Part shown: positions 1,442 to 64,000 of the stretch, one piece after another | Layout: each line of letters starts with the position of its first letter | Numbering within the stretch: the first letter of the stretch is position 1 | Virus record (IMG/VR): IMGVR_UViG_3300011008_000022 | Length of the DNA stretch: 64,000 bases | Direction: 5' to 3' (one strand) | Source of the DNA: a virus | Translations under genes and position numbers: made by a program | The notes under the pieces: generated by a model | What the model was told of the DNA's origin: nothing | Seen by the model: only the letters and a program-made list of their open reading frames with translations | The model's database searches: none

Positions 1442-1462
1442 CCCGCTGATTCCGTCAGCGGG
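1442..1462 (+). terminator. hairpin element, family A variant (CCCGCTGA/TCAGCGGG)
   Basis: cacaGTGCCCGCTGAttccgTCAGCGGGTCTC, after the stop at 1433. Confidence 0.6.
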
Positions 1463-1481
1463 TCTCTAAAACGTATAAAAA

Positions 1482-2600
1482 ATGCCTAAAATTGAATTGT
1501 CCCTTCCCCGCTCCTGGAACCAGTGTACGCTACCTGCGCTCCGTGCTATTGCTGCCGTGCTGACTGACTGCTCGGCACGTATCGATCGCTTCCATCCTTT
1601 TGACATGATGGAGGTAAAGGTGGGGGTATTACTACGTTTAACGAATATCGAAGTGCTGGAACCAATCAACCCGCGAGTAGCGGTCGAAGAGCAATACTAT
1701 ACCTGCCGCCTACGTCCCTGGACTATCGATGAAGAATATAGTCGTTGGTTCCGTATGCTGCGATACTATCGCAGCTTCTGTGCTTGGTTCCGTCGCTCTG
1801 TCCTCGGACATGATGACACTTTCTCGCTATACGTGTGGCAAATCAATTACTGGCTCACTCCTCACAAAGATCAGGCAACAGGACGCATGGTGCCTGGTAT
1901 GCTCGACTGGATGAATAGCGATAGTAAGAGCTTCCTTCAGCGCTTCCCGTTCCCGTCTGTCCGTCGTCGCTCTGGTAAGTGCTCTCGTAAGGTGACATTC
2001 AAGGGACCTAACACGTTTATGGATGGCTTCTCATGGCGACGCTACCGATTCGCTCAGGACTATATGCAGATGTATATCGAACAGCAAAACCATTTGCTCG
2101 AACTGCAACAGTCTGGCAAGGTGTCGGCAAAGGACTTGCTGAAAGCAACAAAGGCCATGGATCTGTCTAAGGCGCTTTTCCTGGCTACTGTCTTCAATCG
2201 TAAGATAACATTTGTCAACGAGGAAACAGGACAGACTATCACCGATTATCATTACCAGTTTAATCAGCATTCAGATAACAGTCCTTTCTTCCGTAATTTC
2301 GACGATAAGGATTGGCAACTGGTGTGCCTATGGTGGGCGGGCATGATGCACTATTTGCATCAGACTTATCCCAAGGTGTTCAAGGTACAGAAGGTGAAAG
2401 GTAACAAGAAACCTGTCAACCCGCTCATGTTATATGCGCGTACAACGGCAACACTGGAGAAGTACCTCCACTCTACTGCAACGGACATAGAAAGGGAACC
2501 TTACTCCACCATCCTTCAGCAACTCGAAGACATCACACGTCGTAACGAGGAGATAGAAGCTGCAAACCGCAAAATGAGGGCACAATCCCGCCGTAAGTAG
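1482..2600 (+). CDS. hypothetical protein
   Basis: 372-aa ORF with a basic C-terminus. Two hairpins follow (2609-2665). Confidence 0.7.
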   Translation: MPKIELSLPRSWNQCTLPALRAIAAVLTDCSARIDRFHPFDMMEVKVGVLLRLTNIEVLEPINPRVAVEEQYYTCRLRPWTIDEEYSRWFRMLRYYRSFCAWFRRSVLGHDDTFSLYVWQINYWLTPHKDQATGRMVPGMLDWMNSDSKSFLQRFPFPSVRRRSGKCSRKVTFKGPNTFMDGFSWRRYRFAQDYMQMYIEQQNHLLELQQSGKVSAKDLLKATKAMDLSKALFLATVFNRKITFVNEETGQTITDYHYQFNQHSDNSPFFRNFDDKDWQLVCLWWAGMMHYLHQTYPKVFKVQKVKGNKKPVNPLMLYARTTATLEKYLHSTATDIEREPYSTILQQLEDITRRNEEIEAANRKMRAQSRRK

Positions 2601-2608
2601 CCACCGTG

Positions 2609-2665
2609 CCCAGCGCTTTTTCGCTGGGTTTTCTTCGTCACCGTGCCCAGCCGTTCTCGGCTGGG
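2609..2665 (+). terminator. two family-A hairpins in tandem
   Basis: CACCGTGCCCAGCGctttttCGCTGGGT and CACCGTGCCCAGCCGttctCGGCTGGGT. Confidence 0.65.
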
Positions 2666-2706
2666 TCTTCAAATCACTTTGTCCCGTCCTCGTCACTCGC
2701 ATTCTG

Positions 2707-2714
2707 TATCTTTG
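2707..2714 (+). promoter_or_regulatory. Bacteroidota sigma-A -7 box (TATCTTTG)
   Basis: Matches the TAnnTTTG consensus. 62 nt upstream of ATG 2776. Confidence 0.5.
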
Positions 2715-2736
2715 CAATATAAAAATAGTTCTGTAT

Positions 2737-2755
2737 GTCGCTATGTCTTAGCGAC
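2737..2755 (+). repeat. family-B hairpin (GTTCTGTAT-GTCGCTATGNCATAGCGAC)
   Basis: gttctgtatGTCGCTATGtcTTAGCGAC (imperfect). Confidence 0.55.
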
Positions 2756-2775
2756 TTTAAAAAGGAAATAAGATT

Positions 2776-4611
2776 ATGGCAAAAAAGACTTCTGCTCCCG
2801 TCACCCGCGTAAAGGCCAGCAACTTCATAAAAAAGGCTGCTGACCTGCATCGCCGTAACTACTCGGTACTCCTGCCAGGCGACCGCTCTTACTATAATTT
2901 GGATGGCCCCAGCAGCGATATTTCTTGGGGCGACTTCATCGGCTCACAGCTTCGTGCCGGTGCAACCGAAAATGGTAAGTCTCAGCGTAAGTCTATACCT
3001 ACGCTCTATTTCTCGTCAGGAAACGAAAGCCAACAGGGAGCTGAGAAGATTGGTACGCCTAACTTGGGATGGATAGAATGGGGCTATGGCAACAACCTGC
3101 CTAACATCGTGGCATTGCTCACACACATGCTGCCATATACGGCTGCCGGTCTTAAATTCAACACGGATCTCTGTGCTGGACTCGGACCTCAGCCGATGTA
3201 CGACTGTACGCAGTATGTGGGTGGTAACATCACACAGAAACTCATCCGCTATAAGGATGCAGGACAATGGCTGCGCGGACGTATCATCGACCTGCAGACA
3301 CAGCTGCTGAACCTCGAACAGAAAAACACCACTCCCGATGATTCATCATCGGGCGAAGGCATGGGTGCTGCTGTTGGCTCTGTAACAGGACGTGGCGCGA
3401 AAAAGTCTGAGGTGTACGATGCACTTGTGGATTCTATCAACGAACAGATAAAGGAATTACAAGAGGCACATAAGGTATGGAAGACTACAGATGAGGAGGT
3501 ACAGAAGTTCCTCGATAATAATAATATCGCTCAGACATGGCTTTCGCTGGTGCTCGATCAGGAACTGTTTGGTATCTCGTTCCCAGAACTGTTGCTGAAC
3601 CAGCAAGACCTCGACGAGAATGGAAACCCTGTCAAAACGAAGACTTGGACTCCTCGCGTGACGGGTATCGCCCACCGTTCATGCCATACGACCCGCATGG
3701 AGCGTATGGATGAAATGGGTAAGATTAACTTCGTGTACTGCTCTACAAGATGGCTTGATAAATACTTCATCGAACAGGGTGGAGAGAATAACGCGCCTAT
3801 CAATGCTATACCTGCCCTCCATGTGCCCTCTCCTCTTGCTTCACTGGAGGAGAAGGTACGTGAGGCTCGCCAGAAAAATGTATCTGTCAACAACAGACCG
3901 ACGCACTTTGTTTTGCCGACGGTCTATCCTACCGCTGGTCGCCCATATTACCCGACTCCTGCCTGGTACTCTATCTTTGGTGGTGATATCTACGAATACA
4001 TCACAACGATATTCTCAGACCGCCTCTCTCGTAAGCGTAACAGCAATGTCATCGGACGTGTCATCTATCTGCATAACGATTACATGCAGCAGTTGTTTGT
4101 GGCCAAAAAAGCACAGGCTGATGCTAACAAACAGGCTGAGATACGCGACAAACTCTATACGCAGATCAACCAGTGGCTCGCCAATCGCAACAATGCCGGA
4201 CAGTCATTGCTGGCTTTCACATTCATGGGCACGGATGGTAAGGAGCATAAGAGCTTCGAGATTGTAGAGATCGAAAGCAACAATAAGGATGTGGTGGCAG
4301 CCAACGAGAAAGAGACGGCTGAACTGTCATCAGTGGTATTCATGGCTCTGGGTCTTGATGGTCGTCTGCTGGGTTCTTCGCCGCTGTCTCTCGTAGGTAG
4401 CAACGGTGGTACTGACATCCGCGAACGCTTCCTGCTTCGCTTGATCCTGAAATCACCGCAAATCAACATCATGCTTAAACCGCTGGAAGTGCTCTCTCGC
4501 TTCAACAAGTGGGACCGCCACCTGGTATGGCAGGTGCAAAAGCAGGCAATGACAACACTTGACCGCTCTAAATCGGGCGTGACAACACAATCTGACGACG
4601 AAGGTAAATAG
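2776..4611 (+). CDS. hypothetical large protein (virion-module context; portal-sized but unverified)
   Basis: 611-aa ORF behind the TATCTTTG box at 2707-2714. Carries an in-frame hairpin at 3334-3353 (TPDDSSSGEG). Confidence 0.7.
   Translation: MAKKTSAPVTRVKASNFIKKAADLHRRNYSVLLPGDRSYYNLDGPSSDISWGDFIGSQLRAGATENGKSQRKSIPTLYFSSGNESQQGAEKIGTPNLGWIEWGYGNNLPNIVALLTHMLPYTAAGLKFNTDLCAGLGPQPMYDCTQYVGGNITQKLIRYKDAGQWLRGRIIDLQTQLLNLEQKNTTPDDSSSGEGMGAAVGSVTGRGAKKSEVYDALVDSINEQIKELQEAHKVWKTTDEEVQKFLDNNNIAQTWLSLVLDQELFGISFPELLLNQQDLDENGNPVKTKTWTPRVTGIAHRSCHTTRMERMDEMGKINFVYCSTRWLDKYFIEQGGENNAPINAIPALHVPSPLASLEEKVREARQKNVSVNNRPTHFVLPTVYPTAGRPYYPTPAWYSIFGGDIYEYITTIFSDRLSRKRNSNVIGRVIYLHNDYMQQLFVAKKAQADANKQAEIRDKLYTQINQWLANRNNAGQSLLAFTFMGTDGKEHKSFEIVEIESNNKDVVAANEKETAELSSVVFMALGLDGRLLGSSPLSLVGSNGGTDIRERFLLRLILKSPQINIMLKPLEVLSRFNKWDRHLVWQVQKQAMTTLDRSKSGVTTQSDDEGK
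3334..3353 (+). repeat. family-A-type hairpin in-frame inside CDS 2776..4611
   Basis: actCCCGATGATtcATCATCGGGcgaagg, encoding TPDDSSSGEG. Confidence 0.7.
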
Positions 4612-4619
4612 TTCTGTAT

Positions 4620-4638
4620 GTCGCTATGTCATAGCGAC
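4620..4638 (+). terminator. family-B hairpin
   Basis: gttctgtatGTCGCTATGtCATAGCGAC, after the stop at 4611. Confidence 0.6.
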
Positions 4639-5696: not shown

Positions 5697-5705
5697 CCAC
5701 CAATC

Positions 5706-5723
5706 CCAGCCGTTCTCGGCTGG
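5706..5723 (+). terminator. family-A hairpin
   Basis: CCAGCCGttctCGGCTGG, after the stop at 5696. Confidence 0.6.
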
Positions 5724-5758
5724 ACCTCGAAAAGAAACAACATAATAATAAAATAAAA

Positions 5759-6276: not shown

Positions 6277-6296
6277 CCCAGCCGCTCTCGGCTGGG
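6277..6296 (+). terminator. family-A hairpin
   Basis: caccgtgCCCAGCCGctctCGGCTGGGtctc. Confidence 0.6.
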
Positions 6297-6880: not shown

Positions 6881-7558
6881 ATGGAAAAATTTAACTATCA
6901 ACAACCGTGCTGCATCGAGAGCACACTGCCACAGCTGCTGAAGAAATACGACTGGCTGCCATTCCAGACAAGTGGCGATGTGACAGTAGAGAAAATCCTG
7001 AAGGCTGTAAGCTACCTCGCTGGCAACAACCTCGACATCACTATCTGCCTGCCGGCTATCGACGTAACAATCCTGCGCCTATTCGCTTGGTACCATAGAC
7101 GTGGATGGCTGAAAGCGTTTACCGTCTTAACGGCAACAGACCAAAGCGAACTGATCCGTAACGAATTGCCAAAGGAACTGCCACTAACCATCGTGGATAG
7201 TGCCGACATCCCCGAAAACTATGGTATGTTGGTCATCAAAGGTGAACTGAGCAATGTCATCGTCAATGGTCCGATCTTCTCAGTCGTCACACCAGGCATC
7301 TGTTCCTATACGGCATACTATGGCAAAGACCCAGAGCGTATCGCTCAACTGACCGACACCATCAATGCCCGCATCCGCGTCGCTGATGCCAAAAAGAAAA
7401 GGGCTGCAAGGAAAACAACCCCAAAGAAAAAAGGCACCACCACTCCCGCCTCCGAAGCTCCTGCTCCCGCTGATGGTTCCACTGTGCTCGGCGATTCTGT
7501 CGTCGAGGAAAAAGACTCCACCTCTCCCGCTGCTTCTCCAGCGGGCACTGATGAATAA
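6881..7558 (+). CDS. hypothetical protein with K/P/A/T-rich low-complexity tail
   Basis: 225-aa ORF. In-frame hairpin at 7526-7545 (SPAASPAGT). Confidence 0.65.
   Translation: MEKFNYQQPCCIESTLPQLLKKYDWLPFQTSGDVTVEKILKAVSYLAGNNLDITICLPAIDVTILRLFAWYHRRGWLKAFTVLTATDQSELIRNELPKELPLTIVDSADIPENYGMLVIKGELSNVIVNGPIFSVVTPGICSYTAYYGKDPERIAQLTDTINARIRVADAKKKRAARKTTPKKKGTTTPASEAPAPADGSTVLGDSVVEEKDSTSPAASPAGTDE
7526..7545 (+). repeat. hairpin in-frame inside CDS 6881..7558
   Basis: CCCGCTGcttctcCAGCGGG, encoding SPAASPAGT. Confidence 0.6.
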
Positions 7559-7599: not shown

Positions 7600-7676
7600 C
7601 ACCCAGCCGCCCGTTATCGGCTGGGTGTTTTCTTTTCCAGCGCTTCCGCCACTGTGCCCAGCCGTTCTCGGCTGGG
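7600..7676 (+). terminator. two family-A hairpins between convergent genes
   Basis: CACCCAGCCGcccgttatCGGCTGGGTG and actgtgCCCAGCCGttctCGGCTGGGt. Confidence 0.65.
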
Positions 7677-8286: not shown

Positions 8287-8395
8287 GGCGATTGCATCGC
8301 CGCTTTTCGTTCTGTGCCCAGCGCTTTTCCGCTGGTCCTGTATGTCGCTATGTCATAGCGACCTTAGCCATCGTGCCCAGCCGTTCTCGGCTGGG
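8287..8395 (+). repeat. stack of four hairpins (C, A, B, A) between two minus-strand genes
   Basis: GGCGATtgcATCGCC (8287-8301), CCAGCGcttttcCGCTGG (8317-8336), GTCGCTATGtCATAGCGAC (8344-8362), CCCAGCCGttctCGGCTGGG (8376-8395). All have plus-strand polarity. Confidence 0.7.
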
Positions 8396-8893: not shown

Positions 8894-9220
8894 ATGACCT
8901 CAAAATTAGACCTTAATCGTGCTTTTAGTGAGCACGGAGTTACTTCTAAGACCGTTGCAGAGCGCATCGGACTGACACCACAGACCATCAGCGCTTATGT
9001 CAACGGCAACCCCACCGTCAAGAGCCTCTATCAGATAGCAGATGCACTTGAATGTGATGTGCGCGACCTGTTCTATCCCGTCGAGGATGCCACAGAGGAA
9101 ACCACCACTCCCGATGCCTCTCCATCGGGCACAAACGGCCCTCGTGCCTCTGCTCTGATTACATGTCCGCATTGCGGCACAGTCCTCTCAGCATCCCTTT
9201 CGGTCTTCAACAAATCATAA
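8894..9220 (+). CDS. XRE-family helix-turn-helix regulator
   Basis: N-terminal HTH (KTVAERIGLTPQTISAYVNGNPTVKSLYQIADAL). Divergent from 8398..8712, with operator-like repeats between them. In-frame hairpin at 9110-9129. Confidence 0.65.
   Translation: MTSKLDLNRAFSEHGVTSKTVAERIGLTPQTISAYVNGNPTVKSLYQIADALECDVRDLFYPVEDATEETTTPDASPSGTNGPRASALITCPHCGTVLSASLSVFNKS
9110..9129 (+). repeat. hairpin in-frame inside CDS 8894..9220
   Basis: actCCCGATGcctctcCATCGGGc, encoding TPDASPSGT. Confidence 0.7.
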
Positions 9221-9776: not shown

Positions 9777-9818
9777 CCCCGCCGATTTCGGTGGGGTTTC
9801 TTTTTGCGATGGCATCGC
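9777..9818 (+). terminator. GC hairpin + T-run, then family-C hairpin
   Basis: CCCCGCCGAttTCGGTGGGGtttcttttt, then GCGATggcATCGC. Confidence 0.65.
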
Positions 9819-11177: not shown

Positions 11178-11236
11178 CCCCACCGAACTCATCGGTGGGG
11201 TTTTTGTTTCGTCATTTGCAAGGCGATTGTATCGCC
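11178..11236 (+). terminator. GC hairpin + T-run, then family-C hairpin
   Basis: CCCCACCGAactcaTCGGTGGGGttttt gtttcgtcatttgcaa GGCGATtgtATCGCC. Confidence 0.6.
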
Positions 11237-17291: not shown

Positions 17292-17311
17292 CCCAGCCTT
17301 TCTCGGCTGGG
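17292..17311 (+). terminator. family-A hairpin
   Basis: caccgtgCCCAGCCtttctcGGCTGGGtcc, after the stop at 17282. Confidence 0.6.
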
Positions 17312-47229: not shown

Positions 47230-47249
47230 CCCAGCCGTTCTCGGCTGGG
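47230..47249 (+). terminator. family-A hairpin
   Basis: ctgtgCCCAGCCGttctCGGCTGGGtcc. Confidence 0.6.
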
Positions 47250-51095: not shown

Positions 51096-51180
51096 GTCGC
51101 TATGCCATAGCGACATTCTCCACTACTCCCAGCCGTTCTCGGCTGGGTTTTTCTTTTCCTCCCAGCGCTTCTCCGCTGGG
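51096..51180 (+). terminator. stack of three hairpins (B, A, A)
   Basis: GTCGCTATGcCATAGCGAC (51096-51114), CCCAGCCGttctCGGCTGGG (51128-51147), CCCAGCGcttctcCGCTGGG (51161-51180). Confidence 0.65.
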
Positions 51181-54700: not shown

Positions 54701-57563
54701 TGTCGATGACATGAGGGCTGCCGGAAAGTCTGTCGAAGATATCAATAAAGACCTGGCAAAGAAACTGGGTGTCGAAGGCAAGGTGGCTCGTGATGCTTAT
54801 AACCGCCGTTCTGATAAGACTTTGCGTACTACTTTCTTCGATCAAGAGAGTTATCGGGCACAGGCGCAATATGATATGGATGGTGGTTTTGCTGCCGCCA
54901 GAAATACGACCCGCGCCCTCACCCAAGCCGAACAGATGTTGTATGCCGCTACTCGTTATGCTACGCAGGCGTACTCCGCATCCAACGCCATGAACCGCGT
55001 CAATAAGAAGTGGAAGCCGTTTGAGGAGGACCTATCGACGGTCACTGATGAGACTCCTGGCACCCTCGACAACGATGCACCCGATAAGGAAGCCGAGAAG
55101 CGCCGCAAGGCTGAGGAAGCGGCTCGACGCAAGGCGCTCCGTGCGGAAATGAAGGAGGAACAGGCTAAGGCTCAGGCTATCGTCGATAATGTCAAGAACT
55201 ACTACGAGCGTCAGATTGCTGCCATTACGGAAATGGCTACAAAGACGGGCATGGATTCTGAACTCCAGAAGAAACTCGTCGATGGTATGACCGTCCGCAT
55301 GAATAATGCACTGGCTAATGTCCGTCAGGCTATCGCTGGCACTGAGAACGATTGGGCTGACTTCCGCCAGTCGATGATAAATGACCTCTACGAACCGCTG
55401 TCTGAGGATGGTACTAACCAGTCCACACAGTTGCTCGATAACATCATCCATAATGATATCGACAAACTGAAGGAAATGATTACGGTTCTCTCGAAAGAAC
55501 TGGGACAGAATGGCTCTGTGCTTCTCGATCAGATATGGCGTAAGGCTACTGAGAATGAACTGAAAAACGCTAACCAACAGAACAAGGCATACCAGGAGCG
55601 TCAGAGGGTGCTTCTGGAAAAGAACTATACGGGCAAGGTAAACCTCGACTACGAGAACCAGATGGAACAGTTTGGTGTCGCCGAACTGACCTCTGAACAG
55701 ATTGCTCAGATGATGGGGTGGTCGCAGAAGGGTAACAACGAGGCTATCCAACAGTTTCTCGATGACCGTACCGAACAGTGGCAAAAGGCGTTTGCATCGG
55801 CCCGTAAGAATGTCGTTGACCTGCTCTCTGTCGATGCCAACAGTGAGGATGCACCTGATAAGGTGCTCACTATCCTCTTCGGTAAGGATTACAAGTCTTA
55901 TCTCGCCGGCACGGGCCTCTCGTCACTGCTCGATATGTCTGCCGACCAGTTCAAGGTGTTCTACCAGAAACTCATCGAATACTCTGATGCCTATACTGAT
56001 GCTCAGAAGAAAGCCTACGACGAGGCAAAACGTCGGGCGGATTTCATCTTTAATAACAATCCTACCATTCAGAGTATCGACCAGTCAACACAACAGCTGT
56101 CAACCATCAACAGCGACCAGCAACGCTTCGAGTCTGATAAGAACATCGGACAGCAGATGGGTATGTCCTGGAACATCGATTCTGACCCCGAAATTCTGCG
56201 CTATCGCCTGCTGGCTGAACGTGCCCGTCTCTACTATGAGGATATGGCGCGTCTGCGTGAACAGGATAAGATCTCTGAACAGCAGCTGACGGATGCAAAG
56301 CGTCAGATGATGGAGGCTCAGTCTAACATGGCCGACCAGGTGGCTCGTAAGTTCCATGAGCGGGTGTCTCTGCTCCAGAACTTCTCCGAACCGCTGAACA
56401 CCTTTGCCGAAGGGGTAGGGGAGTCGCTGGGTAACATGATCTACGACACCGAACAGTCGGATGTCAAGATGAAAGACTTGCTGAAAGACATGCTGAAGTC
56501 GTATGTGAAGATGTCGCTGCAACTTATTGCCCAGGACCTCACACGCCGTGTCACTAAGCAACTCTACTACCGTCAGGAGGAAATGGATGAGACAATGCAC
56601 CAGCAGACCATGCTGCAAATACAGCAGCTCTACCAGTCGCTGATGTTGACAGCTCAGACTACTGGCGATGCAGCGCGTCTTACACAACACGCCACATCGA
56701 ATGCTACCGAACTGTCAGCAGAGGCGGGTGCTACCACTGGTAAGGTGGGCCTCGGTATTGCCGGTGGTGCAGCTAAGATCATCGGCACCCTGGGCTTCTG
56801 GGGTATTCCGCTGATTGGTGTGATTACGGCACTCTTGATGGGACTGCTCTCTTGGGCTATCGGATTGGCTTTCGGTGGCGATGACAGCGGTGCCAGTGCA
56901 TCGGATGCTACGCCTAACGTCAAACTCGCCACAGGTATGTTGACGTATGACAGCGGTAACGTGCAGAGTGTGGGCAACGGTTCTCCCGTTGCTTCTCCCT
57001 CCGGCTATGCGCCCTCCGCCTCTCCTGGTGGTAGTGGTGCGCCCGCTGGTGCTGCCGGCGGGGATAGAACGCCTGTCCTCGGTTCTGATGGCTATGTCTA
57101 TCAGGCTCGCCAGGTGCCACAACTGCAGACGGGTCTCGTCACGTCGCCTATCGCCACCATGGTCAACGGACAACCGTCACTGGTTGGCGAACGTGGCCCT
57201 GAAATGGTGATTGGACGCGAGACAACAGCAGCAATGCAGATGGCACGTCCCGACCTCCTCGCGGCTATCGTGAAGTTTGATAAGAACTACTCCAATGGCC
57301 ATGCCTATCGCACCTATGACGAAGGCAACCTCTCCGACTTCGCCACCGTGCCCGATGGATCTCCATCGGGTGAAGGCACTCTCACCAAAGAGGATATCGA
57401 CGGACTCCGTTCTACGCTCTCCGAGTTTACAGCGGTCATGCTGGCTATCAAGCGCAACGGCCTCCATGTCAACAAGTACGGACGTGGTGGCATCGCTCAG
57501 GAGTCGCAGGATGGCGCTAATTTCATGCGTCGTAACTCCGGCGACCGTCTCTGGAAAGGTTAG
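51774..57563 (+). CDS. tape-measure-like protein (1929 aa)
   Basis: Long coiled coils, TP901-type core-like segment (DLADLAYQGGKMGFG..., TPELLALGSAADALGQAPEVAATAFGKLF), and hydrophobic blocks mid-protein and near the C-terminus. In-frame hairpin at 57351-57370. Confidence 0.7.
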   Translation: MADKQIYIKISADSAQPVAAVKAMRNELSRLQKAYDAINTSTATGAQRAQKLQKEMADLRALIKQQEADMNKVSKVITNLSNASLSQLNQALRQVKKEISRTSESSPKLEELRQKYKAITDQIKVMNGEMINIKKHMGELSTQTDSWLQRAINQQKQLVESTQKTSSAYQGQVNILHQLQNEQARRAVSTISDGGASADALRTARANLVSYRDQLGKGGILPASGNVATEIERINAELKKCDDQLDAIAGKEKQIELTTDQLQQKADNIILDPKKFSPKEIKAAIDEIQKKLNNLGTNDTARKKLNEQMKQLKNILDGVDHELVNIGDLLKPGNLRKAPLETLQKAAKQLENEMAKLNRDQQQYIDKQKQLAAIRGEIERTTGAINRQGSAWKTTFRNISMYFGVFQLFSIAQQKLQGMLQSNLAYSDQLADIRKVTGLATKEVNELSDSLATLNTRSTVQDLADLAYQGGKMGFGKYGVEGMSAFVRAADQVKVALSDDLGDDSLLQISKLVDTMGLIPKLGVERSMLAVGSSINQLSATSTASGTHIVDFAKRLTGLSRITGITTPELLALGSAADALGQAPEVAATAFGKLFTSLQTNHNLIEQQLNMEKGTINNLFSQGKAMEAILQIMEKMREKGNMNALGNIWKDLGSEGQRLIGVMATMSKNVDTVRAHVEESNVAFEEATSLTNEYALKQDTANAILEKGNNLWAKAFTNPEGVDMVKQMAQAWYDLSKSMTSNEASMWIMKNLLGLIAAELKILLALLPAILTGLLFKGASVAIIGLASSIGLMGKNAVLATLQTKGLVAAWHALNTAQKMNVIGLCISLLTGLAIAIASVIKKGNEATTWMQGFNSTMSDFNREFAIADDRLKRFKKAIDDAATGSRQRAAAIRNFNKEYGQYLSKMLTEKSTADDIAKAYKEVVKQLRAKIALQMKEKDITSQVAPRVGWSADRLTEYDNVAGGSAYNGTWLKAYVDDMRAAGKSVEDINKDLAKKLGVEGKVARDAYNRRSDKTLRTTFFDQESYRAQAQYDMDGGFAAARNTTRALTQAEQMLYAATRYATQAYSASNAMNRVNKKWKPFEEDLSTVTDETPGTLDNDAPDKEAEKRRKAEEAARRKALRAEMKEEQAKAQAIVDNVKNYYERQIAAITEMATKTGMDSELQKKLVDGMTVRMNNALANVRQAIAGTENDWADFRQSMINDLYEPLSEDGTNQSTQLLDNIIHNDIDKLKEMITVLSKELGQNGSVLLDQIWRKATENELKNANQQNKAYQERQRVLLEKNYTGKVNLDYENQMEQFGVAELTSEQIAQMMGWSQKGNNEAIQQFLDDRTEQWQKAFASARKNVVDLLSVDANSEDAPDKVLTILFGKDYKSYLAGTGLSSLLDMSADQFKVFYQKLIEYSDAYTDAQKKAYDEAKRRADFIFNNNPTIQSIDQSTQQLSTINSDQQRFESDKNIGQQMGMSWNIDSDPEILRYRLLAERARLYYEDMARLREQDKISEQQLTDAKRQMMEAQSNMADQVARKFHERVSLLQNFSEPLNTFAEGVGESLGNMIYDTEQSDVKMKDLLKDMLKSYVKMSLQLIAQDLTRRVTKQLYYRQEEMDETMHQQTMLQIQQLYQSLMLTAQTTGDAARLTQHATSNATELSAEAGATTGKVGLGIAGGAAKIIGTLGFWGIPLIGVITALLMGLLSWAIGLAFGGDDSGASASDATPNVKLATGMLTYDSGNVQSVGNGSPVASPSGYAPSASPGGSGAPAGAAGGDRTPVLGSDGYVYQARQVPQLQTGLVTSPIATMVNGQPSLVGERGPEMVIGRETTAAMQMARPDLLAAIVKFDKNYSNGHAYRTYDEGNLSDFATVPDGSPSGEGTLTKEDIDGLRSTLSEFTAVMLAIKRNGLHVNKYGRGGIAQESQDGANFMRRNSGDRLWKG
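57351..57370 (+). repeat. hairpin in-frame inside the tape-measure CDS
   Basis: caccgtgCCCGATGGAtcTCCATCGGGtgaagg, encoding TVPDGSPSGEG. A decayed copy may lie at 56985-57004 (SPVASPSG). Confidence 0.75.
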
Positions 57564-57571: not shown

Positions 57572-57591
57572 CCCAGCAGTTTTCGGCTGGG
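57572..57591 (+). terminator. family-A hairpin
   Basis: caccgtgCCCAGCAGttttCGGCTGGGttc. Confidence 0.55.
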
Positions 57592-57900: not shown

Positions 57901-59117
57901 TCACGGGCATGGGCATCTGGTCCTGCATCGGTCAGTCCGTTCAGGAGGTGGCTCAGTCTCTCCGTCTTGGAAAGAGTGGCATCGGCATCGATCCTGAGCG
58001 TACCGCCTACGGCTACCAATCACCCCTTACCGGCATCGTGCCGCGTCCCGACATCAAGGCTCAGGGATTGCGACGCTCTCAGCGCATCACACTCTCCGAA
58101 CCTGGTGAATATGGCTACATGGCCATGAAAGAGGCGCTGACGATGGCTCCTGTCAGCGACCTCTATCGCTGTGGCCTTATCGTCAGCAATGACAGCACTG
58201 CTGGCGCTCTCGCTGAGACAGAGGCTATCATGGCGGAATACCATGACAGCCGACGACTGGGTGCCGGCATGGTGTTCCGCACCCTCAATAGCTCGGTATC
58301 TATGTCGCTGGCTTCCATCTTTGGCATCGGTGGCCTCACACTCTCCGTCTCTGCTGCCTGTGCCGGTGGTGGCCACGCTATCGGTCTCGCTCATTCGCTC
58401 ATTCAGTCCGGCCAACTGGACTGCTGCATTGTGGTAGGCGCTCAGGAGGTAGGACTACATGCCTATACATCCTTTGATGCACTCGGTCTCTTCAGCAAGC
58501 GTACCGACAACCCAGCAGCTGCCTCACGTCCGTTTGACACAGAGCGTGACGGCCTCGTGCCCTCTGGTGGCGCTGCCTGCGTTATCCTCGAAACAGCCGG
58601 ACATGCCGCTATGGGAAACAGAAAACCCTTGGCCATGGTCGATGGCTATGGCTTCTCCACCAGTCCCGATCTCGTTTCTCCCTCTTCCGATGCTATTTAC
58701 CAGTCCATGACCGCCGCCCTATCTGCCGCCACTGTGCCCAGCGGTTCTCCGCTGGGTCCTGGTATCTCCGCTATCATGGCTCACGCTACCTCCACGCCCG
58801 ATGGCGACCGTGCCGAGGCAGAAGCTATCCACCGCTTCTGTCTTGATAATGGTCTATCTCATCCTTTCGTCATCAGCACCAAGGCGCTCACAGGTCACGA
58901 GTGCTGGATGTCGGGTGTCTCTCAGATCGTCTATGCACTCATACAGATGCAAGGTGGTTTCATAGCACCAAACATCAACCTCCGCACCATCGACCCAGCA
59001 GCAGCTACGCTACGCATTCCAACAGCGCCAACCGTCACCACGCTAACCACCGTTCTCTGCAACGCCTTCGGTTTCGGTGGCACCAACAGTAGCCTGGTAA
59101 TCTCTCGCGCTGGCTAA
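57885..59117 (+). CDS. beta-ketoacyl-ACP synthase (FabF/FabB-type, Cys-His-His)
   Basis: RRTVITGMGIWS, active-site SAACAGGGHAI, AHATSTPDGD, TKALTGHECWMSG and NAFGFGGTNSSLVI. The start overlaps the ACP stop by 16 nt. In-frame hairpin at 58737-58756. Confidence 0.8.
   Translation: MRRTVITGMGIWSCIGQSVQEVAQSLRLGKSGIGIDPERTAYGYQSPLTGIVPRPDIKAQGLRRSQRITLSEPGEYGYMAMKEALTMAPVSDLYRCGLIVSNDSTAGALAETEAIMAEYHDSRRLGAGMVFRTLNSSVSMSLASIFGIGGLTLSVSAACAGGGHAIGLAHSLIQSGQLDCCIVVGAQEVGLHAYTSFDALGLFSKRTDNPAAASRPFDTERDGLVPSGGAACVILETAGHAAMGNRKPLAMVDGYGFSTSPDLVSPSSDAIYQSMTAALSAATVPSGSPLGPGISAIMAHATSTPDGDRAEAEAIHRFCLDNGLSHPFVISTKALTGHECWMSGVSQIVYALIQMQGGFIAPNINLRTIDPAAATLRIPTAPTVTTLTTVLCNAFGFGGTNSSLVISRAG
58737..58756 (+). 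repeat. family-A hairpin in-frame inside the ketoacyl-synthase CDS
   Basis: cactgtgCCCAGCGGttctCCGCTGGGtcctgg, encoding TVPSGSPLGPG, just before the AHATST histidine motif. Confidence 0.8.
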
Positions 59118-59124: not shown

Positions 59125-59146
59125 GCCCAGCGCCTCTCCGCTGGGC
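59125..59146 (+). terminator. family-A hairpin
   Basis: caccgtGCCCAGCGcctctcCGCTGGGC. Confidence 0.6.
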
Positions 59147-59265: not shown

Positions 59266-59285
59266 CCCAGCCGTTATCGGCTGGG
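59266..59285 (+). repeat. family-A hairpin in a non-coding region
   Basis: CCCAGCCGttatCGGCTGGG. Confidence 0.6.
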
Positions 59286-59562: not shown

Positions 59563-59619
59563 GTCGCTATGTCATAGCGACCAGGACTCCTCTTCCACTC
59601 CCAGCCGTTCTTGGCTGGG
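59563..59619 (+). repeat. family-B, then family-A hairpin in a non-coding region
   Basis: GTCGCTATGtCATAGCGAC and CCCAGCCGttctTGGCTGGG. Confidence 0.6.
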
Positions 59620-61675: not shown

Positions 61676-61682
61676 ATATAAT

Positions 61683-62615
61683 ATGTATCTCATCAAACCA
61701 TCAGTCGAACTTTGGCCGGCTCCTGAAGACTGGCACGAACAGGTAGCACGGGCTGCCCGTCTCTGCTATGCCTCTGAAGGCGGCAAGAAAACCGCAGAAG
61801 AGTTCTGTGAAATGCTGAAGAAACGTAACCACCTGTCGATGTTCAGACATGGATCACGTTACTTCATTATCCCTGATGTCGTTCCTTCAGAACTGACTAA
61901 CGCTACACCCAGCAAGGGTGGTAAGAAAGCGTCCTCTCAACCACCGCTTTGGCTCTTTACGGTCCTCACAAACACACCCTATGTAGGCATCCGTTACCAT
62001 AAGGATAAAAAGGCAAAGACACGCTGCTATTATATTAGCACCAATATCCAGTATCTCATGGATAGTCCCAGCATCGAAGAAATGCTGCGTCCCTACGAGG
62101 TGACACTCCAGCAGTTCATCGGTCACGCTACGTCTGATAATTTCCCAGCAGCTATGAACCTGGTGCGTTATACGGTTTGTGTTACTACGCAGATATCTAC
62201 CAGCCGCGAACTAAACCGCACGTCGCCCAACAACATCGCAGAACAATCTACCCGCTACGTCAACTTTGGCAAAAAGGGTGGCATCACCATCTGTCTGCCT
62301 CATTGGTTCCAGTGCGCACACTGGTCTAAGCGACTGTTGGCCCGTGTCATGTGGAAGTGTAGCGAATGGGCCTATAAACTCGCCCTTTTACTCGGTCTTC
62401 CTGCTCAGGATGCACGAGGATTCCTGGTACTCGACGCTGGAACACGCGTCGCCTACACCTACAACGTCTTCGAGTGGCGCAACATCATGCGCCTCCGTCT
62501 TACTGGAGAGACAGGCAAACCGCATCCTAACGCCCACATCGCTGCTCAACTCATCCACGATGCCATCCTTCCGGCTATGCGCATCTATGCAGGTGAAGCA
62601 GCTACGCTCGTATAG
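61683..62615 (+). CDS. ThyX-family (flavin-dependent thymidylate synthase-like) protein with a non-canonical signature
   Basis: ARLCYAS, NHLSMFRHGS, ..SRELNRTSPNNIAEQSTRYV (canonical R..RHR..S....S.RY, with RHR replaced by RTS), and AQDARGFL...FEWRNIMRLR. Confidence 0.55.
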   Translation: MYLIKPSVELWPAPEDWHEQVARAARLCYASEGGKKTAEEFCEMLKKRNHLSMFRHGSRYFIIPDVVPSELTNATPSKGGKKASSQPPLWLFTVLTNTPYVGIRYHKDKKAKTRCYYISTNIQYLMDSPSIEEMLRPYEVTLQQFIGHATSDNFPAAMNLVRYTVCVTTQISTSRELNRTSPNNIAEQSTRYVNFGKKGGITICLPHWFQCAHWSKRLLARVMWKCSEWAYKLALLLGLPAQDARGFLVLDAGTRVAYTYNVFEWRNIMRLRLTGETGKPHPNAHIAAQLIHDAILPAMRIYAGEAATLV

Positions 62616-62619
62616 CATT

Positions 62620-62639
62620 CTCAGCCGCTCTCGGCTGGG
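62620..62639 (+). terminator. family-A hairpin (slightly degenerate)
   Basis: CTCAGCCGctctCGGCTGGG, after the stop at 62615. Confidence 0.55.
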
Positions 62640-62673
62640 TTACAATAGTATCAATTTCTTAATATCTACAACA

Positions 62674-63126
62674 ATGGAACAAAAATTCGTAAATTACCCC
62701 CCCCTGGAAGACCTGAAACAGCTCTCCGAGGAAGAAGTACGAGCATGGTTTGGTAAAGTTAATACCTACCGTGATGAAGCTATCATGCAGATCCGTACCA
62801 AGTGCGACAATGACGTGTTCAACGTCCGTACCGAACAGCAGGTAGAACGCAACCGCATCATCTGCCTTATCGACCTCAAACGGTCACAACTGCCCTCTGG
62901 TGGCACACCCGATGAGCGCGAAAAAGCATTAGCACTGCGTCAGGAAATGCACAACCTCGATCATCAGATGCAACTCAATGACATCAATACGCAGAAGAAA
63001 ATCTATGACCTCAAACACGAGAAGAAAGTGGCCATCAACGCACTGCAACGTCAGTGGGAAACAGCAACAGGTGTCCTTAAACAAGCACTGATTTTCGTCT
63101 GCGAAAAAGCAAAGGAAACAACGTAA
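62674..63126 (+). CDS. hypothetical coiled-coil protein with a C8 tract in codons 8-11
   Basis: ATG at 62674 (MEQKFVNYPPLEDL). The tract 62697-62704 is in-frame as sequenced. Confidence 0.55.
   Translation: MEQKFVNYPPLEDLKQLSEEEVRAWFGKVNTYRDEAIMQIRTKCDNDVFNVRTEQQVERNRIICLIDLKRSQLPSGGTPDEREKALALRQEMHNLDHQMQLNDINTQKKIYDLKHEKKVAINALQRQWETATGVLKQALIFVCEKAKETT
62697..62704 (+). repeat. C8 homopolymer, flank AATTA, in codons 8-11 of a plus-strand gene
   Basis: aAATTACCCCCCCCtgg. In-frame as sequenced. Confidence 0.9.
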
Positions 63127-63153
63127 CAAAATAACTGTTATGATAAATAGACT

Positions 63154-63984
63154 ATGAGCAAGACAAAGAACCTCGCCATCTACCGCCCTAACGGTGCTGC
63201 TGCAGAATACAGCACATGGGCTTGCAACCTCTACAACGGCTGCTCTCATTCCTGTACCTACTGCTACTGCAAACGCGGTGTGTTCGGTCATATTCTCGGT
63301 AAGGATGTGCCAGAGATTAAGGCCCTACTCGGTGGTGATCCTAAGAAAGCGTATCATCTTTTCTGCCAAGAACTTGATAAATATCGTGACCAGATTACCG
63401 CCGATGGCGGGCTGTTCTTTTCTTTCTCAACGGACCCGATGCTGCGTGAGGAAATCACGCTCACCCTGAACTGCATAGAATATGCCTTCAGCCAACAGGT
63501 TCCCGTCATCATCCTCACCAAAGCTACATGGTGGGTACGCGAAGACTGGGTGATTGGCGCTCTCTATGCACACCGTGACCTTCTCACCATCGGCTTCACA
63601 CTCACCGGCCACGACGAACTCGAACCTGGCGCTCCTGCTAACGTATCGCGTCAGACGGCACTTATCTACCTCTCAAAGATGCAGTTCCGCACCTTTGCCA
63701 GCATGGAGCCGGTCATCGACTTCGTTTCCTCACTGGCAATCATCCGCACCATAGCCTCCGACTGTCAGGAGTTCCGCATCGGCCTGCTCTCTCCCTACAG
63801 CAAGAAACGCTATGACTCCGCCCAGTGTGAGCGCTTCATCCGTGAAGTGCAGCGCCTCTCCAAAGAGCACAACTTCCGCATCCTCTGGAAAGAGTCTATC
63901 CGCCGTTTCTGCCGTGATTGGTCTATTTGCCCAGATTTATGTAACCCAGTGCTCGGTGATTCCGTTGCCGAGACAAAAGATTAA
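63154..63984 (+). CDS. radical SAM protein (SplB/COG1533-like)
   Basis: NLYNGCSHSCTYCYC (CX3CX2C). 276 aa. Confidence 0.65.
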   Translation: MSKTKNLAIYRPNGAAAEYSTWACNLYNGCSHSCTYCYCKRGVFGHILGKDVPEIKALLGGDPKKAYHLFCQELDKYRDQITADGGLFFSFSTDPMLREEITLTLNCIEYAFSQQVPVIILTKATWWVREDWVIGALYAHRDLLTIGFTLTGHDELEPGAPANVSRQTALIYLSKMQFRTFASMEPVIDFVSSLAIIRTIASDCQEFRIGLLSPYSKKRYDSAQCERFIREVQRLSKEHNFRILWKESIRRFCRDWSICPDLCNPVLGDSVAETKD

Positions 63985-63992
63985 CCACCGTG

Positions 63993-64000
63993 CCCAGCCG
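63993..64000 (+). terminator. 5' arm of a family-A hairpin, cut by the window edge
   Basis: ccaccgtgCCCAGCCG at the end of the window. Confidence 0.5.

Follow-up and report, generated by a model that had tools for sequence, protein, structure and literature searches.

The window, a 64,000-nt stretch of phage DNA, carries hairpins of three families, A, B and C, among genes of both strands (Table 1). The phage has a genome of ~102 kb and probably a rumen Prevotella host. Using a strand-neutral hairpin scan followed by manual curation, we found 54 hairpins, 36 in family A, 10 in B and 8 in C, which matches exactly the approximate counts of an earlier sequence-only reading. Motif searches recovered 21 copies of the family A core (0.01 expected), 9 of family B (0 expected) and 11 of family C (0.19 expected); since these searches list a palindromic core once only, polarity was determined separately. 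The unit is an intergenic punctuation module of ~27-70 nt in which the hairpin is preceded by 8-15 nt of conserved 5' flank, and selection keeps the base pairing of the hairpin rather than its sequence. About 80% of copies lie within + operons, and a B-A module of ~70 nt recurs at 8.34, 51.1 and 59.56 kb. The gaps in family A described earlier hold roughly: 9.8-17.2 kb contains one variant A, at 11178, and 29-37 kb, said to carry B instead, has no A between 28892 and 37359 and holds both B and C.

Table 1. Hairpin elements of the window, with orthologous changes in relatives.
Element	Position	Strand	5' flank	Context	In relatives
A CCCGCTGA-ttccg-TCAGCGGG	1442..1462	+	atcacagtg	8 nt past stop of + gene 30-1433	
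A CCCAGCG-cttttt-CGCTGGG	2609..2628	+	gccaccgtg	T tract; first of tandem pair, operon end	
A consensus CCCAGCCG-ttct-CGGCTGGG	2646..2665	+	gtcaccgtg	then promoter TATCTTTG at 2707	
B	2737..2755	+	GTTCTGTAT	5' leader, 20 nt upstream of ATG 2776	
A variant CCCGATGA-ttca-TCATCGGG	3334..3353	+	caccact	in frame, ORF 2776-4611, reads NTTPDDSSSG	
B	4620..4638	+	GTTCTGTAT	8 nt past stop, 20 nt upstream of ATG 4659	A element in L002
A	5705..5724	+		follows + gene 4659-5696	extra tandem A unit in L014; no element in L011
A, loop ctct	6277..6296	+	gtcaccgtg	8 nt past stop	B-like element in L011
A variant CCCGCTG-cttctc-CAGCGGG	7526..7545	+		in frame, 3' end of ORF 6881-7558	CCCGATG/CATCGGG in L025 (compensatory)
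A-like + T tract	7602..7625	+		+ terminator, convergent junction	
A	7657..7676	+	gccactgtg	T tract; convergent, 2 nt from stop of minus gene 7679-8245	
C palindrome GGCGATtgcATCGCC	8287..8301	+	TTTCGTCTATTGTTC	between minus genes	
A-type CCCAGCG-cttttc-CGCTGG	8317..8336	+		between minus genes	
B	8344..8362	+	GTCCTGTAT	between minus genes; in recurring B-A module	
A	8376..8395	+	gccatcgtg	between minus genes, 2 nt from stop of minus gene 8398-8670	
A variant CCCGATG-cctctc-CATCGGG	9110..9129	+		in frame, HTH gene 8894-9220	
A variant CCCCGCCG-attt-CGGTGGGG	9777..9796	+		conserved G·T pair; T tract; + terminator	
A variant CCCCACCGA-actca-TCGGTGGGG	11178..11200	+	gccaccgcag	T tract; adjoins iteron-rich region	
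C palindrome	11222..11236	+	TTTCGTCATTTGCAA		
A	17292..17311	+	cccaccgtg	9 nt past stop of 16452-17282	
A-like CCCCACTGG-ttccc-CCAGTGGGG	19600..19622	+		opens duplicated 200-nt cassette	
C palindrome	19645..19659	+	GTTTCGTTTATTGTCA	upstream of promoter; cassette 19585-19800	
C palindrome	21279..21293	+		second cassette copy; upstream of promoter 21362	
A	23549..23568	+		NAD-ligase ORF, in ~27 aa insertion between OB fold and Zn finger	
B variant GTGGCTAT-gcc-ATAGCCAC	26635..26653	+		30 nt upstream of ATG, Rep-like gene	GTTGCTAT/ATAGCAAC in L006 (compensatory)
A + CTTTTTTG	28181..28200	+		terminator ahead of promoter 28234	
B-like GCTGCTA-tctcg-TAGCAGC	28302..28320	+	GTTCCGTGT		
A, flank-less	28892..28911	+		convergent junction; terminator-like on both strands	loop AGAA in 45988
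C palindrome	28938..28952	+		3 nt from stop of minus gene 28956-29570	hybrid of L009/L003 C pair
B	33823..33841	+	GTTCTGTAT	~26 nt upstream of minus-gene ATG (start 33796)	
B	34680..34698	+	GTTCTGTCT	22 nt upstream of ATG, minus MTase gene 34008-34658	no element in L035
B variant GTGGCTAT-gtc-ATAGCCAC	34898..34916	+	GTTCTGTAT	minus context	
C-like palindrome GGCGATttgGTCGCC	35503..35517	+		in minus PAPS-reductase ORF; weakest member	
C palindrome	36346..36360	+	TTTCGTTCATTGTAA	minus context	
A CCCTGCC-gttctt-GGCTGGG	37359..37378	+	gccaccgtg	in minus ORF 37100-38197; tandem with 37392	
A CCCAGCG-tatctc-CGCTGGG	37392..37411	+	ccactact	minus context	
C palindrome	38187..38201	+	TTCGTTCTTTGTCA	between minus genes	
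A	38670..38689	+		between minus genes	+ polar B and C elements instead in L013
A, loop tttt	40649..40668	+	gccaccact	in minus HTH-repressor ORF 40328-41113	
A	42187..42206	+		7 nt past stop; without T tract; operon-internal	
A, T·G at base	46548..46567	+		follows 1222-aa gene	
A	47230..47249	+	cccctgtg	8 nt past stop, 20 nt upstream of beta-clamp gene	
A variant CTCGATGG-ttct-CCATCGAG	49035..49054	+	gccaccgtg	in frame, HNH gene	CCCGCTGG/CCAGCGGG in L018 (triple compensatory)
B	51096..51114	+	GTTCCGTCT	opens B-A-A cluster, operon end	
A + TTTTTCTTTT	51128..51147	+		B-A-A cluster	
A CCCAGCG-cttctc-CGCTGGG + TCTTTTTG	51161..51180	+		ahead of promoter 51214	
A variant CCCGATGG-atct-CCATCGGG	57351..57370	+	gccaccgtg	in frame near 3' end, 1929-aa ORF	
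A	57572..57591	+	gtcaccgtg	8 nt past stop of 1929-aa ORF	
A variant CCCAGCGG-ttct-CCGCTGGG	58737..58756	+	gccactgtg	in frame, ketoacyl-synthase ORF	
A CCCAGCG-cctctc-CGCTGGG	59126..59145	+	atcaccgtg	follows stop 59117	no element in L010
A, flank-less, loop ttat	59266..59285	+		then CTTTTTG on minus strand, hence terminator-like for minus unit from promoter 59484	loop AGAA in 45988
B	59563..59581	+	GTTCTGCAT	in 1 kb non-coding stretch	
A with G·T pair, CCCAGCC-gttctt-GGCTGGG	59600..59619	+	ttccact		
A CTCAGCCG-ctct-CGGCTGGG, T·G pair	62620..62639	+		follows stop of ThyX gene	

The stems are selected as hairpins, since compensatory changes separate orthologues at 7526, 49035, 2737, 26635 and 34898 and G·T mismatches outnumber A·C. 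In one curated set, both partners have changed in 6 of the 8 stem pairs and pairing holds in 95.8% of cells, figures that are only supportive because the set was chosen for pairing. The folding strand is the + strand, as its stem mismatches comprise 30 G·T vs 7 A·C and an A subfamily, CCCCGCCG/CGGTGGGG, in which one G·T pair is conserved, recurs in 10 distinct contexts. Hairpins with a T tract were flagged on the + strand at 2608, 7599, 7656, 9777, 11176, 17291, 19600 and 28181, and about nine A copies are predicted canonical + strand intrinsic terminators at operon ends. Terminator-type A copies directly precede Bacteroidetes-type promoters (TTTG...TAnnTTTG), with A clusters immediately before those at 2707, 28234 and 51214, and families B and C are located in leaders or upstream of promoters. 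The element is host-type; this combination of flank and hairpin also comes after stop codons in MAG contigs of Prevotella and Bacteroidaceae.

We found that the asymmetric parts, the 5' flank and the pyrimidine loop, lie on the + strand in all 54 hairpins, as had been claimed from the sequence alone, minus-strand gene blocks included. The pyrimidine-rich loop is on + in 36/36 A, 9/10 B and 8/8 C, and a leave-one-out weight matrix scores the 5' flank higher on + than on − in 33/36 A, 10/10 B and 8/8 C; the three A copies lacking this excess have no flank on either side. Scoring loop and flank, no reversed copy was found among the 54. About 14 hairpins lie in true minus-gene context, in real minus-strand operons (8287, 8317, 8344, 8376, 33823, 34680, 34898, 35503, 36346, 37359, 37392, 38187, 38670 and 40649), and all are + polar, which bears out the claim that the elements ignore gene direction there. 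Copies 7602, 7657, 28892 and 28938 lie where genes converge and so do not test polarity. The minus-strand genes are real, since they have Pfam matches (N6_N4_Mtase, PAPS_reduct, HTH, GNAT) and are preceded by Bacteroidetes promoters on the minus strand (8740 and 39068). Flank information content in minus context at least equals that in plus context. The peptide signatures offered earlier as an independent check are distributed as described, with QPRTAG confined to minus frames (12 occurrences) and AQP(F/L)SAG, searched as QP[FL]SAG, to plus frames (17 occurrences); both are mere translations of the element. As a control, 41 of the 44 matches to the 8-nt leader repeat TTCATCAA lie on +; of the three on the minus strand, two fall inside a minus block at 31489-31509, so that a gene-oriented repeat appears to flip there, at this one locus.

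The polarity extends beyond the elements and beyond the window. Several hexamers, CGGCAG and GCGGCG among them, occur on a single strand only across the genome, and third-codon positions on the + strand have more C than G in genes of either orientation, which supports a DNA-level polarity of the genome itself, independent of gene direction. Extending the analysis to related phages, a check proposed by the sequence-only reading, revealed that relatives 80-98% identical keep the same polarity over ~97 kb of the 102 kb genome. Each related contig shows a single polarity (33/33, 25/25 and others), ~33 kb outside the window included. The sole exceptions are two loop flips on contig 45988, which affect the homologues of 28892 and 59266, both of them flank-less, putative bidirectional terminators. 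The elements themselves turn over: at fixed sites, A and B replace each other in both directions, tandem units are gained and elements are lost, and some copies stand in frame within ORFs.

Some of this turnover involves whole cassettes. In relatives L009 and L003, an extra minus-strand ORF of ~1 kb lies between two + polar C copies, and the window has at this site one C whose left flank is that of C1 and whose loop and right flank are those of C2, a hybrid that points to recombination between direct repeats. One clean example of a cassette bracketed by same-family elements was found; a further insertion, of 679 nt in L023, has 27-nt direct repeats of a different intergenic repeat on either side, and at several other indel junctions examined the window has no element. 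Modules move as units, as seen in the recurring B-A module and in a 200-nt terminator-C-promoter-leader cassette with two copies, at 19585-19800 and 21233-21440 (85% identical). Of 66 homology-block ends, 21 lie no more than 15 nt from an element (3.4 expected), as do 12 of the 32 intergenic ends (6.1 expected), although part of this enrichment may merely be fast turnover of the elements themselves.

We tentatively propose, giving the idea slightly less than an even chance, that the elements are RNA punctuation hairpins doubling as direct-repeat recombination linkers, whose polarity is set by the backbone rather than by the ORF. Modules in + operons would act in sense RNA, as shown in part: A with a T tract as an intrinsic terminator closing an operon, in many cases joined directly to the Bacteroidetes-type promoter that follows, and A without a T tract as an internal hairpin that may stabilise or process 3' ends. 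The same repeats would serve as short-homology joints at which cassettes are inserted, deleted or exchanged by relatives infecting the same cell. Two recombining copies would align in parallel, so that an inserted cassette would be bracketed by two backbone-oriented copies whatever its ORF direction, and element position would thus track gene boundaries while polarity tracks the DNA molecule. Since the whole genome is strand-polarised, as the one-orientation hexamers indicate, polarity-breaking inversions are probably also counter-selected. This proposal accounts for the upkeep of polarity, not for the origin of the first + element beside a minus gene, and it leaves the strong flank conservation in minus context unexplained unless recombination or a strand-specific function needs the flank. 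Pairing kept even inside ORFs (7526, 49035) is poorly predicted by either an RNA-terminator or a linker role.

The sequence-only reading had preferred a DNA-level role to simple terminators, and this stands in part: in the minus blocks the elements ignore gene direction, and the genome is strand-polarised, but the majority of copies resemble ordinary elements of the RNA level, given the A terminators at operon ends, the + strand folding and the Prevotella MAG occurrences. Among DNA-level roles, the elements may be a strand-specific priming signal for an AEP primase, which the phage itself encodes. Single-stranded DNA hairpins of the REP or HUH/RAYT/IS200 type, also suggested earlier, are not supported, as no such protein, nor an integrase, was found in a scan of ~70 proteins from the window and 10 from outside it. 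The earlier suggestion nearest to our result was polar spreading by gene conversion; what we found is that cassettes are gained or lost through recombination of directly repeated elements. The proposed recombination between direct repeats has a precedent in the PeSL cassettes of T4-type phages, whose documented mechanism (PMC2839356) likewise uses short-homology repeats to gain, lose and exchange genes.

A strand-neutral hairpin scan, followed by curation, recovered 36 copies of family A, 10 of family B and 8 of family C, with core motifs far above chance, and so bears out the sequence-only reading that three hairpin families are repeated in the window. That reading had also given them all a single DNA polarity. 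We found 54 of 54 copies in direct orientation; the observation is real and highly non-random. Since the motif search lists a palindromic core only once, polarity was called from the loop and the flank. The A loops are all pyrimidine-rich on the + strand, typically YTCTC when the closing bases are included, and the A, B and C flanks have the consensus sequences gCCACYGTG, GTTCTGTAT and TTTCGTYNATTGTNA, respectively. Leave-one-out flank matrices preferred the + strand for 33 of the 36 A copies and for every copy of B (10/10) and C (8/8), and the three A exceptions are copies without any flank. At the gathering threshold, Rfam returned zero family matches across the whole window.

Polarity was further said to ignore gene direction, which holds in the transcription units where it can be judged best. 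The minus-strand units at 7.7-8.7 kb and 29-39 kb and the gene at 40328-41113 are real, as shown by our gene calls, Pfam matches on the minus ORFs and promoters on the minus strand (8740 and 39068). These minus operons contain about 14 elements, drawn from some 9-10 independent sites, all of them + polar and with full flanks. The same analysis on relatives gave one orientation in 33 of 33 copies in one related contig (26549) and in 25 of 25 in another (38674_117). Loci of related contigs with uniform polarity tile most of the 38 kb beyond the window, and across about 97 of 102 kb the polarity never switches. Reversal was confined to the loops of two copies in a third related contig (45988), the homologues of the copies starting at 28892 and 59266, which are flank-less hairpins at convergent junctions and look like terminators for the minus strand too. 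Thus, the idea that polarity is set at the level of the DNA was right.

The position of the elements tracks gene boundaries, while their polarity tracks the DNA. In + context, the flank starts immediately after the stop codon and the hairpin follows 7-11 nt after the stop; B copies lie about 20 nt upstream of start codons in either gene orientation, and C copies lie upstream of promoters or start codons. Roughly 9 of the 36 A copies, found at operon ends, combine a T tract with a + strand terminator flag, and the copy at 28892 has a hairpin and T tract on the minus strand as well. The T tract is absent from A copies internal to operons, and the remaining A copies and all B and C copies are without the hairpin-T-tract terminator form. 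Three A clusters lead directly into the next promoter. Six copies are located within + strand ORFs, where they are read in one frame (P-D/A/S-x-S-P/S-S/A/L-G). The gene for the NAD-dependent DNA ligase (22300-23934) contains an in-frame A hairpin at 23549-23568, in a frame unlike that of the other six, and compared with solved LigA structures this hairpin falls within an insertion of about 27 residues in the gap between the OB fold and the Zn finger.

Comparison of orthologues indicates that stem pairing is under selection. Compensatory changes convert CCCGCTG/CAGCGGG to CCCGATG/CATCGGG in the copy at 7526 and CTCGATGG/CCATCGAG to CCCGCTGG/CCAGCGGG in the copy at 49035, and the B stem occurs among orthologues as GTCGCTAT, GCTGCGAT, GTGGCTAT and GTTGCTAT, each with a matching 3' arm. 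In a curated set, both sides had changed in 6 of 8 stem pairs, which is supportive only, as the set was chosen for pairing. Copies with a single mismatch carry 30 G·T pairs compared to 7 A·C pairs on the + strand, and a subfamily with a fixed G·T, CCCCGCCG/CGGTGGGG, was found in ten contexts. This excess of G·T on the + strand therefore shows that it is the + strand that folds, which fits RNA in + operons. In minus context, wobble pairs are split about 2 to 2 among the informative variants, too few to decide the folding strand there.

The three repeat families are not the only feature of this genome that ignores gene direction. At third codon positions, + genes have C at 0.368 and G at 0.227, while minus genes read on their sense strand have G at 0.366 and C at 0.21, which again is C-rich on the + strand. 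The third-codon GC skew is thus independent of gene direction and never changes sign, and the cumulative GC skew declines steadily over all 64 kb without ever turning, which points to unidirectional replication or some other pressure along the whole strand. Short motifs are also confined to one strand. Counts on the + strand and for the reverse complement were 0 and 83 for CGGCAG, 0 and 49 for GCGGCG, 1 and 56 for CGGTGA, and 1 and 51 for GGTGAG, and the same held for GAATC (2 and 48), GCGGAG (2 and 45), GCGCAG (1 and 27) and GAGTGA (1 and 25), while single-base neighbours of the skewed hexamers showed no skew. The hexamer rule is valid in minus genes and in every relative (including L021, L030 and L037), even where the GC skew is near zero. 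From this pattern, it looks as if the phage avoids inverted sites of several restriction systems that depend on site orientation (Type III-like). Phage T7 has its EcoP15I sites in one orientation (PMC3874151), and the motifs here are alike in this respect, though on a larger scale and with several motifs. With its GC3 skew, its hexamers and its three repeat families, the genome is an unusually clean natural case of a strand-polarised dsDNA phage, and this polarisation yields testable predictions on orientation-dependent host restriction in Prevotella and on replication mode. Unlike A, B and C, the 8-nt leader repeat TTCATCAA (44 matches compared to 2.5 expected, in intergenic arrays of 2-5 copies) appears to follow gene direction, as seen at one minus-block locus.

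Elements turn over between the window and related loci. The copy at 4620 is a B in the window and an A in L002, that at 6277 is an A in the window and a B-like element in L011, and that at 38670 is an A in the window and a B plus a C in L013, all of them + polar. L014 carries an extra tandem A unit at 5706, where L011 has none, and the B at 34680 is missing from L035. Duplication also involves larger units. A cassette of about 200 nt at 19585-19800, made up of a hairpin, a C palindrome, an A-rich run, a TTTG...TATCTTTG promoter, a leader with a small hairpin and an ATG, recurs at 21233-21440 with 85% identity, and three copies of a B-A module of about 70 nt are present. Since the cassette occupies 19585-19800, the ORF called at 19622-20227 from a GTG start is probably too long. 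At window position 28.95 kb, an additional ORF of about 1 kb on the minus strand lies between two + polar C copies in the related contigs L009 and L003, where the window has a single hybrid C with the left flank of copy 1 and the loop and right flank of copy 2. Judged from this junction, the hybrid is the footprint of direct-repeat recombination, and it is our one clean case; a further insertion, in L023, lies between 27-nt direct repeats that belong to another intergenic repeat. Ends of homology blocks fell at elements in 21 of 66 cases compared to 3.4 expected and, when only intergenic ends were counted, in 12 of 32 compared to 6.1.

Of the readings considered, the best supported is one that we hold tentatively, as it falls just short of probable: A, B and C may be RNA punctuation hairpins of the PeSL/REP-like kind, which in this strand-polarised genome would also act as joints for recombination between direct repeats. 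Recombining copies would align in parallel, so a cassette would always come to lie between two backbone-oriented copies, whatever the direction of its ORF, and inversions would be costly in a genome polarised by one-orientation hexamers. Because recombination would align the copies in parallel, + polar elements around minus genes could be accounted for without a strand-specific enzyme. If true, terminator-type hairpins would serve both as RNA punctuation and as direction-preserving joints for gene-cassette swaps, which would explain how genes of either orientation are slotted into a backbone of fixed DNA polarity.

Related elements also occur outside this phage group. An exact 20-mer is found 11 times in the window, whereas the MAG contigs of Prevotella or Bacteroidaceae that contain it do so in a single copy each; the amplification is therefore specific to the phage, and a host REP family is ruled out as the identity of the elements. 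In MAG contigs of these taxa, the flank GCCACCGTG, GCCACAGTT or GCCCCTGTG is followed by GC-rich hairpins with other stems, located directly after stop codons. A scan of viral contigs with the loose pattern CCCAGCGN6CGCTGGG gave mostly chance matches, and only L067 (IMGVR_UViG_3300010275_000035) was useful. At 1952-8872 it carries eight hairpins, CCCAGCG-c(a/t)tctc-CGCTGGG with the flank GC(A/C)CCCGT(T/G), in one polarity among + genes. No DNA similarity to the window was detected in L067, so elements of this type are not restricted to the one phage group.

The simplest alternative is that these are ordinary terminators whose shared polarity reflects mostly + strand genes. About 83% of the coding sequence is indeed on the + strand and about nine A copies are canonical + terminators, but this explanation fails since the minus-context copies (about 14 elements at 9-10 sites in real minus operons) stay + polar; replacement elements at minus sites in diverged relatives do so too, most copies are missing a T tract, and neither B nor C resembles a terminator. 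We consider it hardly credible. A transposition history, in which REP/RAYT-like or IS200/IS605-like miniature elements were spread by an HUH transposase into one template strand, so that orientation follows replication, would suit the conserved 5' tag with a GC-rich hairpin, the many intergenic copies, the presence/absence polymorphism and tandem clusters, the in-frame ORF copies (including the insertion in the conserved ligase) and the copies in host contigs and the unrelated phage contig L067. However, Y1_Tnp, HUH and Phage_integrase matches were absent when about 70 proteins of the window and 10 large ones from the rest of the genome were scanned against Pfam and PHROGs, which covered all but about 5 kb of the genome and the small ORFs, and RAYT is likewise missing among these proteins. 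Further, the 20-mer is found once per MAG contig against 11 in the window, the duplicated units are composite modules of 70-200 nt and so larger than one hairpin, a consistent target sequence is absent in minus context, and so is BIME-like alternation. Of the sequence-only reading, polarity at the DNA level stands, while the particular mechanisms that it put forward, REP/RAYT and IS200 elements among them, are left unsupported; we regard this history as highly improbable. Polarity might instead arise through selection, if flank and loop motifs were tolerated in one orientation only and just those insertions survived. Type III restriction enzymes require two inverted copies of their site for cutting. 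The genome-wide one-strand hexamers with unskewed single-base neighbours speak for such selection, as do the A flank TCACCG and the A loop-stem junction CTCCGC, the reverse complements of CGGTGA and GCGGAG, and the T7/EcoP15I precedent (PMC3874151). Yet many A copies (flank CCACTACT, loop TTCT) are without such a motif, hexamers of the B flank GTTCTGTAT are unskewed outside the elements and B is still 10/10 polar, and flips of the plain TTCT loop are tolerated at two sites. One-orientation hexamers are thus ruled out as the sole cause of polarity for B and many A copies, and we find this explanation very unlikely.

Strand-specific ssDNA replication signals are the remaining alternative, and here too we consider the proposal unlikely. 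The flank and hairpin would be read on the one strand left single-stranded in unidirectional or rolling-circle replication, for example in priming or primosome loading for the phage AEP primase. Uniform polarity over about 97 of 102 kb agrees with this, as does a third-codon GC skew of constant sign that is unrelated to gene direction. The phage also encodes an AEP primase, a DUF5906 protein, a beta clamp, an exonuclease and a ligase, and the elements combine a short conserved single-stranded flank, often ending in GTG, with a hairpin of variable stem, an architecture that resembles known primase recognition sites such as G4 oric, RSF1010 ssiA and the pRN1 GTG motif. Such signals would explain why pairing is retained inside ORFs and why flanks are conserved in minus context. 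On the other hand, the elements are clustered, with up to 4 in 110 nt, and long genes are left without any for 4-6 kb; such spacing is unsuited to priming and rules out evenly spaced Okazaki priming sites. The fixed 8-nt spacing from stop codons, the terminator T tracts on some copies and the same element at gene ends in host contigs also count against it, and three flank families would need one or several recognisers. In addition, the usual rule that the G-rich strand is the lagging-strand template would make the minus strand that template, yet the wobble evidence has the + strand folding. The stronger form, in which the modules are primarily one-strand ssDNA loading or priming signals for the AEP primase and replisome in rolling-circle replication and the RNA terminator role is secondary, strikes us as quite unlikely; on this view there would be about 90 ssi-like signals per genome as part of a strand code that includes the one-orientation hexamers. 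Should the elements turn out to be read by the phage primase as ssDNA signals, they would represent a dispersed replication signal of a new kind.

The source of the window is a tailed phage of about 102 kb, possibly a phage-plasmid. Genes were called by our own codon-based method. Proteins for replication and maintenance include a ParA ATPase, a weak Rep3_C-like initiator, the NAD ligase, a beta clamp and an AEP primase (BT4734-like_N and PriCT_2), and a 1222-aa protein has a domain of the uncharacterised family DUF5906, which we suspect, on our own reading rather than from a domain scan, to be a helicase-type ATPase. A DnaQ-like exonuclease, dUTPase, ThyX, an HNH endonuclease, several DNA methyltransferases, a PAPS-reductase-like gene and a holin are also encoded. 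Megablast of 8 kb gave zero matches to GenBank phages and protein-level matches were distant only, to Bacteroidota phages, while IMG/VR holds many relatives of 80-98% identity, including contigs of 101.9 and 103.7 kb. The host is probably Prevotella, given promoters of Bacteroidetes type (TTTG...TAnnTTTG) and the presence of the flank-hairpin in MAG contigs of Prevotella and Bacteroidaceae.

Several other regions drew our attention. At 57637-59117, an acyl carrier protein (PP-binding) adjoins a beta-ketoacyl synthase, both unusual auxiliary genes for a phage. The 1929-aa ORF at 51774-57563 carries the PHROGs label tape measure with partial and weak coverage, and this label is doubtful because its neighbours are replication and nucleotide-metabolism genes and the structural genes lie outside the window. 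The minus-strand island at 29586-36014, whose gene content varies among relatives, encodes a GNAT acetyltransferase, a small radical-SAM-like protein, an N6/N4 methyltransferase and a PAPS-reductase-like (PP-loop) protein, and may be a DNA-modification or anti-restriction island. Non-coding sequence at 10967-11640 is dense in tandem direct repeats of several kinds (ctacaacgtagt; ccgccatgtcgcacaaaacac; cccgctccatcgaacgaagtac; tttctacacc; ttttcctctaact; ggttagtacaaacctta), which are iteron-like and may mark an origin or partition site. On the minus strand, a Bacteroidetes promoter (TACCTTTG at 59484, -33 TTTG) faces a stretch of about 200 nt (window 59290-59500) with two small hairpins and zero called ORFs. 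The stretch runs up to the 59266 hairpin, after which the minus strand reads CTTTTTG, and the unit may be a small RNA or a short gene. Outside the window, relatives encode a reverse transcriptase (L030 2356-3702), next to which two 126-nt direct repeats (L019 11662-11787 and 12147-12272), 485 nt apart and 85% identical, resemble the template/variable repeat pair of a diversity-generating retroelement (DGR). An A element sits between the two repeats in L019. A DGR outside the window cannot explain 54 dispersed copies, and A, B and C were thus rejected as DGR target hairpins.

Coordinates of composite elements, leader-repeat arrays, selected genes and flank-hairpins in MAG contigs (window positions unless a contig is named)
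Feature	Position	Strand	Basis or remark
A hairpin + TTTG...TATCTTTG promoter composite	2609-2714		
A hairpin + TTTG...TATCTTTG promoter composite	28181-28241		
A hairpin + TTTG...TATCTTTG promoter composite	51128-51221		
TTCATCAA arrays	9206-9234, 11614-11642, 16036-16064, 17320-17348, 17632-17660, 20229-20257		
TTCATCAA arrays	20845-20889, 21852-21888, 24006-24026, 24893-24937, 57594-57638		
TTCATCAA array within minus block	31489-31509	minus	
HNH endonuclease gene	48855-49271		Domain scan; no link to hairpin sites
AEP primase, BT4734-like_N + PriCT_2	60683-61675		Pfam/PHROGs scans
Flank-hairpin in MAG contigs	L052 851 and 2053; L051 5727 and 5797; L057 887; L044 6775		

Among known systems, the closest to our reading of the hairpins as RNA punctuation and recombination joints are the PeSL cassettes of T4-type phages, described in the cited passages as an intergenic terminator stem-loop plus promoter (Arbiol et al. 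2010, PMC2839356; PMC4122927), in which an ORF with a PeSL on each side is lost or gained and mini-circles arise (PMC2839356). As far as those passages go, both systems have repeated intergenic modules with a GC-rich terminator stem-loop and a promoter that flank variable ORFs, and in both, indels among close relatives are explained by recombination between flanking copies. The window has composites of stem-loop terminator and promoter, and an ORF indel by recombination of flanking copies in one clean case (L009/L003 compared to the window). Unlike PeSLs as described there, our elements form three families with conserved 5' flanks and covarying stems, are spread genome-wide rather than only in hyperplastic regions, and include copies in frame inside ORFs. 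A search of the literature for unidirectional intergenic hairpins in phages or for Bacteroides terminator motifs found nothing specific.

Other systems share single features with the elements. Proteobacterial REP/BIME elements with RAYT are likewise short GC-rich imperfect palindromes with a conserved 5' tag and many post-stop copies, and both occur in clusters and act at the RNA level in 3' end protection and termination; here, RAYT was not found among the proteins scanned, the tag is CCACYGTG or GTTCTGTAT and not GTAG, all copies are direct whereas BIMEs alternate in orientation, and amplification is in a phage and not in a host chromosome. About nine A copies resemble rho-independent terminators, with a GC-rich hairpin and T tract at an operon end on the transcribed strand, but a T tract is missing from most elements, B and C precede start codons, some copies are in ORFs, and orientation does not follow the transcription unit, as minus-operon copies are antisense. 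Integron attC sites are also folded, single-polarity recombination sites that bracket cassettes with ORFs either way, though R/L boxes and extrahelical bases are absent here, the flanks do not match GTTRRRY, an integron integrase or tyrosine recombinase was not found among the proteins scanned, and the junction looks like short-homology recombination. Rickettsia palindromic elements (RPE) are palindromic repeats in frame in genes, as is the copy in the interdomain linker of the NAD ligase; our elements are about 30 nt rather than 100-150 nt, mostly intergenic and of single DNA polarity. With ssi signals (G4 oric, RSF1010 ssiA/ssiB) they have in common a hairpin and conserved single-stranded flank on one strand only, a feature that is non-specific by itself, and a phage primase is present, but they differ in their tens of copies clustered at gene boundaries, some of them terminators, and would be candidate priming sites. 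As for strand-specific nicks of the T5 type, an HNH endonuclease gene is encoded (48855-49271) but is not linked to the hairpin sites. Altogether, we lean, with slightly more doubt than confidence, towards PeSL/REP-like hairpins that keep the polarity of the backbone inside minus operons, a behaviour not described for PeSLs in the passages of PMC2839356 and PMC4122927.
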